Shown piece after piece: positions 4,352-5,125 of a stretch of 13,918 nucleotides of DNA. The position numbers and the translations under genes are program-made. How positions within the stretch are numbered: the stretch's first letter is position 1; the number at the start of each line of letters is the position of its first letter. The stretch lies in the IMG/VR virus record IMGVR_UViG_2695420480_000007. One strand, written 5' to 3'. Source of the stretch: a virus. Its lineage: Duplodnaviria; Heunggongvirae; Uroviricota; Caudoviricetes. Under the pieces are notes generated by a model, which saw only the letters and a list, made by a program, of their open reading frames with translations, did no database searches and was not told where the DNA came from.

Positions 4352-5125
4352 ATGGATATTACTGAGTTTCCTTCTGGAGTAATTGAACACCTTGGCTGGT
4401 ATGTATACCGATTGATTGATCCGAGGGACGGAAGCACCTTCTATGTAGGGAAAGGCAAAGGTAACCGCGTATTTGCCCATATGCGCGGTGAAGTGGCAGC
4501 GACTGATGATGACGAGTTACTGAGCAACAAGCTAAAGCAAATTAGAGAAATAAGGTTAGCAGGACTTGAGGTTATCCATGTCATCCATCGACACGGAATG
4601 ACTGATGAAAAGACGGCGTACGAAGTTGAAGCAGCACTTATTGATGCCTACCCTGGGTTAACGAATATCATGAATGGTGCTGGCAGCAATGAATTCGGCG
4701 CCGCGCATGTCAAAGAGTTGATAGCAACATATCAACCCGAAACCATAACATTTCATCATAAAGCATTAATGATTTCCGTTAACAGAAGTGCAAAGGATTC
4801 AGAGCTTTATGATGCGGTTCGATTTAGCTGGCGCATTAATGTCTCTCGCGCCAGCCAAGCAGAAGTCATTCTTGCTACTGTAAGGGGGATCGTTCGAGGG
4901 GTTTTCATTGCTGATAAATGGCTCAAATCAACACGTGAAAATTTCCCTACGATGAAATACTGGGACGAGGATCCGGACTTTGAGGCAACACAAAGTTCTC
5001 GCTATGGTTTTGAAGGTCGAGAAGCCCCACCTGAAATAGCAAATCTTTATCTTGGAAAAAAAATACCAGATGAATTAAGAAAAAAAGGAGCTATGTCCCC
5101 GGTCCGTTACTCACCTGATTTTTGA
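4352..5125 (+). CDS. GIY-YIG nuclease-family protein (N-terminal GIY-YIG-like domain plus C-terminal domain of unknown function)
   Basis: Track ORF 4301..5125 begins at TTG; first in-frame ATG is 4352 (MDITEF...). Motif [30 protein letters not shown] resembles GIY…YIG with conserved Arg; candidate catalytic Glu in [10 protein letters not shown]-rich. The 3' 290 bp (4836..5125) is duplicated in inverted orientation at 8336..8625. Confidence 0.6.

Follow-up and report, generated by a model that had tools for sequence, protein, structure and literature searches.

The stretch of DNA analyzed here (13,918 nt; hereafter, the window) carries, next to the gene for a serine DNA invertase, an open reading frame in the place where the e14 element of Escherichia coli K-12 holds the restriction gene mcrA. 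This raises the question of what the gene in that place encodes. A first-pass annotation, made from the sequence alone, had put forward a candidate single-gene, restriction-like anti-phage nuclease, with a GIY-YIG-like N-terminal motif and a C-terminal half that it could not assign to any known system.

Organization of the gene and its product

The gene and the adjacent invertase gene lie as follows.

4352..5125, + strand: gene assigned below to CMoRE (PD-T4-3), intact; 257 aa plus stop codon, from the open reading frame and profile matches
5186..5740, − strand: pin (pinE-type) serine DNA invertase; RefSeq start, 184 aa; the open reading frame spans 5186–5776

According to the open reading frame listing, position 4352 begins an ATG codon, and position 5125 is the last base of the stop codon; RefSeq annotates an identical 774-nt coding sequence in other strains. 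A TTG at 4301 is a possible earlier start that would add 17 codons; RefSeq and the crystallized constructs use the ATG. The gene (+) and pin (−) are convergent, as originally described, with 60 nt between them, and pin encodes Resolvase and HTH_7 domains (Pfam, E = 1e-51). The gene had been called AT-rich; its GC content (43.9%) is indeed below that of pin (49.7%) and proA (54.3%), but only moderately so. Consensus scans showed no strong sigma-70 promoter upstream of the gene on the + strand and no terminator in the stretch between the gene and pin.

The N-terminal motif is confirmed by the Pfam model LEM-3_GIY-YIG (PF22945), which covers residues 28–110 and scores 54.2 bits, the model's cut-off being 27; the GIY-YIG peptide quoted in the first-pass annotation corresponds to residues 17–39. 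For the C-terminal half of the product, a Pfam scan (E ≤ 0.01) yielded no model, and an NCBIfam search of the protein gave zero matches.

Identification as CMoRE

The profile searches that had been suggested for both halves of the protein gave a match across its whole length. The PADLOC profile for PD-T4-3 (PDLC04031) was matched over residues 1–256 of 256 (E = 2.4e-140), and PHROG 5356 also matched full length (E = 4.9e-143). Sequence matches in the PDB were limited to four entries, 9U75 and 9U8D from E. coli O157:H7 and 9U7U and 9U7Z from APEC O1, all four deposited under the title “GIY-YIG domain-containing protein.” The window protein is identical to the O157:H7 protein at 252 of 257 positions (98.1%; 9U75, E = 1.7e-171) and 85.2% identical to the APEC O1 protein. 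These structures are the work of Liu et al. (Nat Commun 2026, PMC12923530), who renamed PD-T4-3 as CMoRE, for Cytosine Modification Restriction Endonuclease. The original PD-T4-3 isolate is ECOR68.

The alignment allowed the functional regions to be placed on the window.

4400..4681, + strand: GIY-YIG catalytic core, Y17-x-Y19 ... Y31, R39; Pfam PF22945, aa 28–110
4505..4516, + strand: acidic autoinhibitory loop D52-D53-D54-E55; role taken from the published 4A mutant (PMC12923530)
4724..5122, + strand: C-terminal modification-sensing domain, about aa 125–257 including Y127, boundary approximate; match to 9U75/9U8D

The GIYxY-YIG motif is complete in the window protein (Y17, Y19, and Y31), together with the conserved catalytic R39. 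R80, V92, L96, and Y127 are likewise conserved, V92 and L96 being oligomer interface residues. The loop with four consecutive acidic residues reads DDDE in both the window protein and the APEC O1 protein and DDDD in the O157:H7 protein. Only five substitutions separate the window protein from O157:H7 CMoRE (A51T, D55E, K169Q, H197N, and N256D); the first two fall within or next to the acidic loop, and the other three are the only differences from the 9U75/9U8D chain across residues 125–257.

Because the window protein has all of the named residues and the acidic run, the gene at 4352–5125 very probably encodes CMoRE, that is, a single-gene type IV restriction endonuclease acting on T-even phages with modified cytosine. 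In length, two-domain architecture, and single-gene nature, it agrees with the O157:H7 and APEC O1 enzymes, and it falls within CMoRE/PD-T4-3 on every count that can be read from sequence. Judged by the profile match and its 98.1% identity to a characterized enzyme, the proposed single-gene restriction-like anti-phage nuclease is very probably just that, and what the protein matches is CMoRE, not a housekeeping or homing nuclease without a link to defense. The C-terminal domain, in turn, should no longer be regarded as belonging to no known system, as it corresponds to the published 5hmC/5ghmC sensor of CMoRE.

Standard annotation hides this identity, since the RefSeq product name for homologues is only “LEM-3-like GIY-YIG domain-containing protein” (loci L001, 10153–10926; L002, 8046–8819; and L003, 5014–5787, in other strains) and NCBIfam has no model for the protein. 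The novelty implied at first pass does not hold: the PD-T4-3 defense phenotype was published in 2022, and its modification dependence, mechanism, and structures followed in 2025–2026. The finding at 4352–5125 is thus already known, as publications cover the system along with its phage range, biochemistry, mechanism, and crystal structures, and the value of the identification lies in correct annotation and little in discovery.

Published properties of CMoRE and the proposed mechanism

CMoRE protects against T2, T4, and T6 by about 5 logs, without abortive infection (PMC12923530). T4(C) escapes, whereas T4(hmC), which is unglucosylated, remains sensitive. Once purified, the enzyme binds and cleaves no DNA other than that containing 5hmC or glucosyl-5hmC, with Mg2+ or Mn2+ as cofactor; it cuts at CN11/N9G with 2-nt 3′ overhangs and requires two modified cytosines (PMC12923530). 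The N-terminal domain has a GIY-YIG fold, structurally nearest to that of UvrC, and its motif has one additional tyrosine (Y17, Y19, Y31); mutants of Y17, Y19, and Y31 in the O157:H7 protein lose both defense and nuclease activity. The active site is covered by a 15-residue acidic insertion; when the four acidic residues of this loop are changed to alanine (4A), ordinary DNA is cut and the enzyme becomes toxic. CMoRE assembles as a dimer-of-dimers, and the double mutation V92S/L96S destroys both assembly and defense. In the C-terminal domain, for which the authors report neither a sequence nor a structural homologue, 5hm-dCTP sits at the domain edge and is hydrogen bonded to the main chain of Y127. 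When expressed from its native promoter, the APEC O1 allele is weak; the O157:H7 and Klebsiella alleles are functional (PMC12923530). In an independent study, a Capnocytophaga homologue with 48% identity was also modification-dependent and, in addition, cleaved Mu DNA.

The mechanism was demonstrated on the O157:H7 protein and, given the 98% identity, is transferred to the window protein. The window protein would form a dimer-of-dimers tetramer, in which the C-terminal domain would recognize 5-hydroxymethylcytosine or glucosyl-5hmC at the domain edge, but not C or 5mC, and one dimer would read a pair of modified cytosines separated by about 21 bp. The GIY-YIG domain, with Y17, Y19, Y31, the catalytic Arg/Glu, and Mg2+ or Mn2+, is predicted to cleave CN11/N9G to give 2-nt 3′ overhangs, while the acidic loop (DDDE) over the active site would exclude ordinary host DNA. 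The predicted outcome is that incoming T-even phage DNA would be destroyed directly and non-abortively and that Dcm-methylated host DNA would be spared.

Comparison with other nucleases

EcoKMcrA (the product of e14 mcrA, RglA) resembles the window protein in that its gene occupies the same slot, as the first gene past the pin stop at the prophage end, and in belonging to the modification-dependent type IV enzymes, with modified cytosine as its target. The proteins themselves are unrelated. McrA has a C-terminal HNH nuclease and a different N-terminal reader; the window protein gave only PF22945 in the Pfam scan (E ≤ 0.01), with no HNH domain and no sequence or Pfam similarity to McrA. McrA recognizes 5mC/5hmC within a sequence context and, as known from Rgl genetics, restricts phages with non-glucosylated hmC but not glucosylated T-even phages. 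CMoRE, in contrast, also attacks glucosylated DNA. The analogy with mcrA is apt inasmuch as both McrA and CMoRE are type IV enzymes.

PvuRts1I and AbaSI are specific for 5hmC and glucosyl-5hmC, not 5mC, and combine an N-terminal nuclease with a C-terminal base reader; they cut about 11–13/9–10 nt 3′ of the modified base, leaving 2-nt 3′ overhangs. They share substrates and a similar cut geometry with CMoRE, but the domains are unrelated: PvuRts1I and AbaSI pair a nuclease of the Vsr-like/PD-(D/E)XK type with an SRA-like reader, and CMoRE has GIY-YIG and its own fold. At the sequence level, searches of Pfam and the PDB with the window protein gave no PD-(D/E)XK/Vsr-like or SRA-like match. The comparison with PvuRts1I is also drawn in the CMoRE paper (PMC12923530).

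The UvrC N-terminal domain and LEM-3-like GIY-YIG proteins (PF22945) share the catalytic fold with CMoRE, which differs from them in having the extra tyrosine (GIYxY-YIG), the 15-residue acidic insertion, and a fused modification reader.

Alternative readings of the gene

GIY-YIG domains also occur in selfish homing endonucleases of the I-TevI kind, and the gene could in principle be one of these, spreading itself. The window protein has a weak match to PHROG 314, “homing endonuclease” (E = 0.0022), and full-length homologues in jumbo phages (38–45% identity) are labeled “putative homing nuclease,” but such labels are automatic names, not tests. A homing enzyme is hard to reconcile with the behavior of the 98%-identical enzyme, which is modification-dependent, has little sequence specificity, and confers a direct defense phenotype; this near-identical protein cleaves 5hmC/5ghmC DNA only, and there is no target allele lacking an intron or intein. 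Moreover, the Pfam scan of the window protein showed no homing-type DNA-binding modules, and the gene is located in chromosomal prophage cargo. We regard a homing function as extremely improbable.

Alternatively, the gene might be a true CMoRE orthologue that is silent or inactive in this strain, that is, cargo with no current phenotype. Such a situation would fit the lack of a promoter in the upstream consensus scan, the weakness of the APEC O1 allele under its native promoter, and the decayed state of the surrounding prophage, and a native-host survey found many predicted defense systems to be inactive. Still, the reading frame is intact with all functional residues present, an identical protein is maintained in many independent assemblies, and the alleles of O157:H7 and Klebsiella are active under their native promoters; in the clinical isolate NILS69, PD-T4-3 was one of only two defense systems active in the native host. 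A silent gene therefore seems very unlikely.

Homologues of CMoRE are also present in lytic jumbo phages, for example Serratia phage Moabite (6406–7161), Pseudomonas phage OBP (158703–159449), and Klebsiella phage N1M2 (129135–129860), where they could be weapons against competing phages with modified DNA.

The host element

The stretch comprising proA, thrW, and the integrase gene is 99.7% identical to E. coli strain Z1323PEC0011, and the window DNA is from E. coli. The attachment-site tRNA gene was located as follows.

12475..12550: tRNA-Thr(CGT), thrW

Between thrW and the left end of the window lies a decayed e14-family prophage. Relative to K-12, the constant part of the tail-fiber gene is 98.8% identical to ycfK, a ymfM/ymfN fragment is 98.3% identical, and tfaE and pin are about 90–92% identical. 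The remnant is integrated at thrW, not icd (window 9470–9796, 10220–10623, 11297–12460, and 12475–12550). It has undergone a large internal deletion, since the tail-fiber gene directly abuts the ymfM/ymfN-like fragments. In the public contig (L006, 939–1002), a 64-nt copy of the thrW 3′ region lies some 650 nt beyond the left end of the window and marks the far att site, at the other end of the island.

The slot next to pin

The K-12 e14 layout given at first pass, with pin followed by mcrA, agrees with the K-12 record, in which the order is stfE/tfaE, pinE, mcrA, icd attachment scar; pinE and mcrA run in the same direction in K-12 and are not convergent. Homology between the window and K-12 (91.6%; about 92% DNA identity for pin versus pinE) stops at window position 5184, 2 nt past the stop codon of pin. 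Hence, the GIY-YIG gene occupies the same slot as mcrA, as had been proposed.

The distribution of this arrangement was assessed among 5426 complete E. coli genomes. A query spanning 4200–5200, with the whole CMoRE gene inside, had some match in 1046 of the 5426, and in 822 at least 80% of the query was matched, which corresponds to a CMoRE frequency of approximately 15–19%, mostly adjoining pinE. A close pin allele was found in 1257 complete genomes, CMoRE and pin were contiguous in a single alignment in at least 570, and 329 have pinE followed by mcrA as in K-12. The one P2-like tail module that was sampled has a more distant invertase with no cargo alongside.

We tentatively suggest that the slot from the pin stop to the prophage end of e14-family elements could be a site devoted to the exchange of type IV restriction genes, although this is somewhat less probable than not. 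Its occupant may be McrA, which acts on 5mC/5hmC and is defeated by glucosylation, or else CMoRE, which acts on 5hmC and glucosyl-5hmC, and the cassette may be delimited by short conserved repeats. A literature search found no paper describing an alternation of McrA and CMoRE next to pin, and this alternation is possibly the only unreported point here; if true, it is a small matter of comparative genomics that involves no new system. Since CMoRE replaces mcrA in a very common prophage family, many wild E. coli would have a restriction enzyme capable of handling glucosyl-hmC where K-12 has one that is sensitive to glucosylation.

Upstream cargo and repeats

The idea of swappable cargo was borne out by comparison with other strains: the DNA upstream of CMoRE varies, whereas the CMoRE–pin pair is constant. 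The upstream cargo consists of HTH and ImmA/IrrE, BRO-N, and S1 peptidase genes in the window and in L002, L006, and L007; of a type II restriction–modification system in L003; of CP4-like YfjS…CbtA/CbeA genes (toxin/antitoxin) in L001, L010, and L011; and of a P4-like primase in L008. Among the loci that differ in upstream cargo, CMoRE is the only gene in common and no obligate partner accompanies it, which is consistent with a single-gene system, and an identical CMoRE protein has been retained in many independent assemblies. Homology to the other strains begins at 4060 (L001, L010, and L011) or at 4142, within a repeat (L003). The repeats around the cassette are as follows.

4066..4163, + strand: repeat of about 98 nt bounding the CMoRE cassette upstream; 82% direct repeat with 1396–1493
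5150..5177, + strand: 28-nt remnant of this repeat, in the interval from the CMoRE stop codon to that of pin

The copy at 1396–1493 runs on into the 3′ core of tmRNA (ssrA), at approximately 1487–1521: GCGGGTTCAACTCCCGCCAGCTCCACCA. When used as a query, the repeat was found at a median of three places per E. coli genome, ssrA counted, and the matches are unannotated. The possibilities that the repeats represent an RNA gene or a site dedicated to recombination were considered and set aside in favor of island scars; they look like right-end (attR-side) scars of CP4-type islands. An Rfam scan of the window gave thrW only.

Several other genes share the island with CMoRE but are not linked to it in other strains. 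An XRE-type HTH gene and an ImmA/IrrE metallopeptidase gene (2747–3124 and 3128–3661, both +) form a pair that resembles the CapH/CapP defense regulators (PADLOC, E = 6e-11 and 5e-15). A BRO-N/Ant-like gene lies at 1679–2440 (−) and a gene for a stand-alone S1/trypsin-like peptidase (PHROG 18002) at 1–1047 (−).

The invertible segment and an apparent second copy of pin

On the far side of pin from CMoRE lies an invertible tail-fiber segment of the P type, with two alternative fiber tips and two assembly genes. Its crossover sites, and the partial second copy of CMoRE found near it, are listed here.

5802..5821, no strand: left crossover site of the invertible tail-fiber segment; 20-nt inverted repeat with 9478–9497
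9478..9497, no strand: right crossover site, within the tail-fiber gene (…NLGLGE…); inverted repeat with 5802–5821
8336..8625, − strand: second copy of CMoRE codons 162–257 (last 290 nt), probably not real; perfect inverted repeat

In a sibling assembly (L007, 7456–9303), the segment between the crossover sites has the opposite orientation at 100% identity. Pin is thus apparently active in this lineage, as two otherwise identical assemblies differ in the orientation of the segment.

The window contains a perfect 986-nt inverted repeat (4836–5821 and 7640–8625) and a perfect 868-nt direct repeat (6787–7654 and 8625–9492), which together yield a second pin gene and the second copy of CMoRE codons 162–257. 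Taken as real, these could mean that a block from the 3′ part of CMoRE through pin to the tail-fiber gene was duplicated in tandem and then inverted by Pin, leaving the locus with two invertases and a truncated sensor-domain reading frame. A tandem duplication and one Pin inversion suffice to give the layout A X B Y X′ Y C, and the Y–X′ joint at 7640–7659 is a legitimate crossover product, the one expected from the other orientation of the segment. The second joint, at 8625, is illegitimate. An exact-protein look-up led to contig CXZE01000004.1 (GCA_001277415.1), which is the same as window 1–11125 save for one base, “A” in the window and “N” in the contig at 8625; because of this N, a real duplication is ranked low, and we consider it unlikely. 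The window “A” is absent from the public record.

The remaining evidence on this point agrees. In the 5426 complete E. coli genomes, a megablast search with 8500–8750 gave no single-piece match across the 8625 joint; scanning the GTDB representative genomes for an exact 34-mer likewise yielded 0 matches, and the chimeric 141-aa reading frame is absent from the gene-position index by exact look-up. The sibling assembly GCA_019513185.1, which matches the whole locus at 100% identity, carries pin and CMoRE once each and lacks the duplication, and several other draft assemblies end exactly within the invertible region. Some scaffolders insert a single N where contigs are predicted to overlap. Hence, the duplication at 7640–8625 is most likely a scaffolding artefact, and one that could be mistaken for a gene duplication in the window; most simply, contigs were joined during scaffolding from a population in which both orientations of the segment were present.
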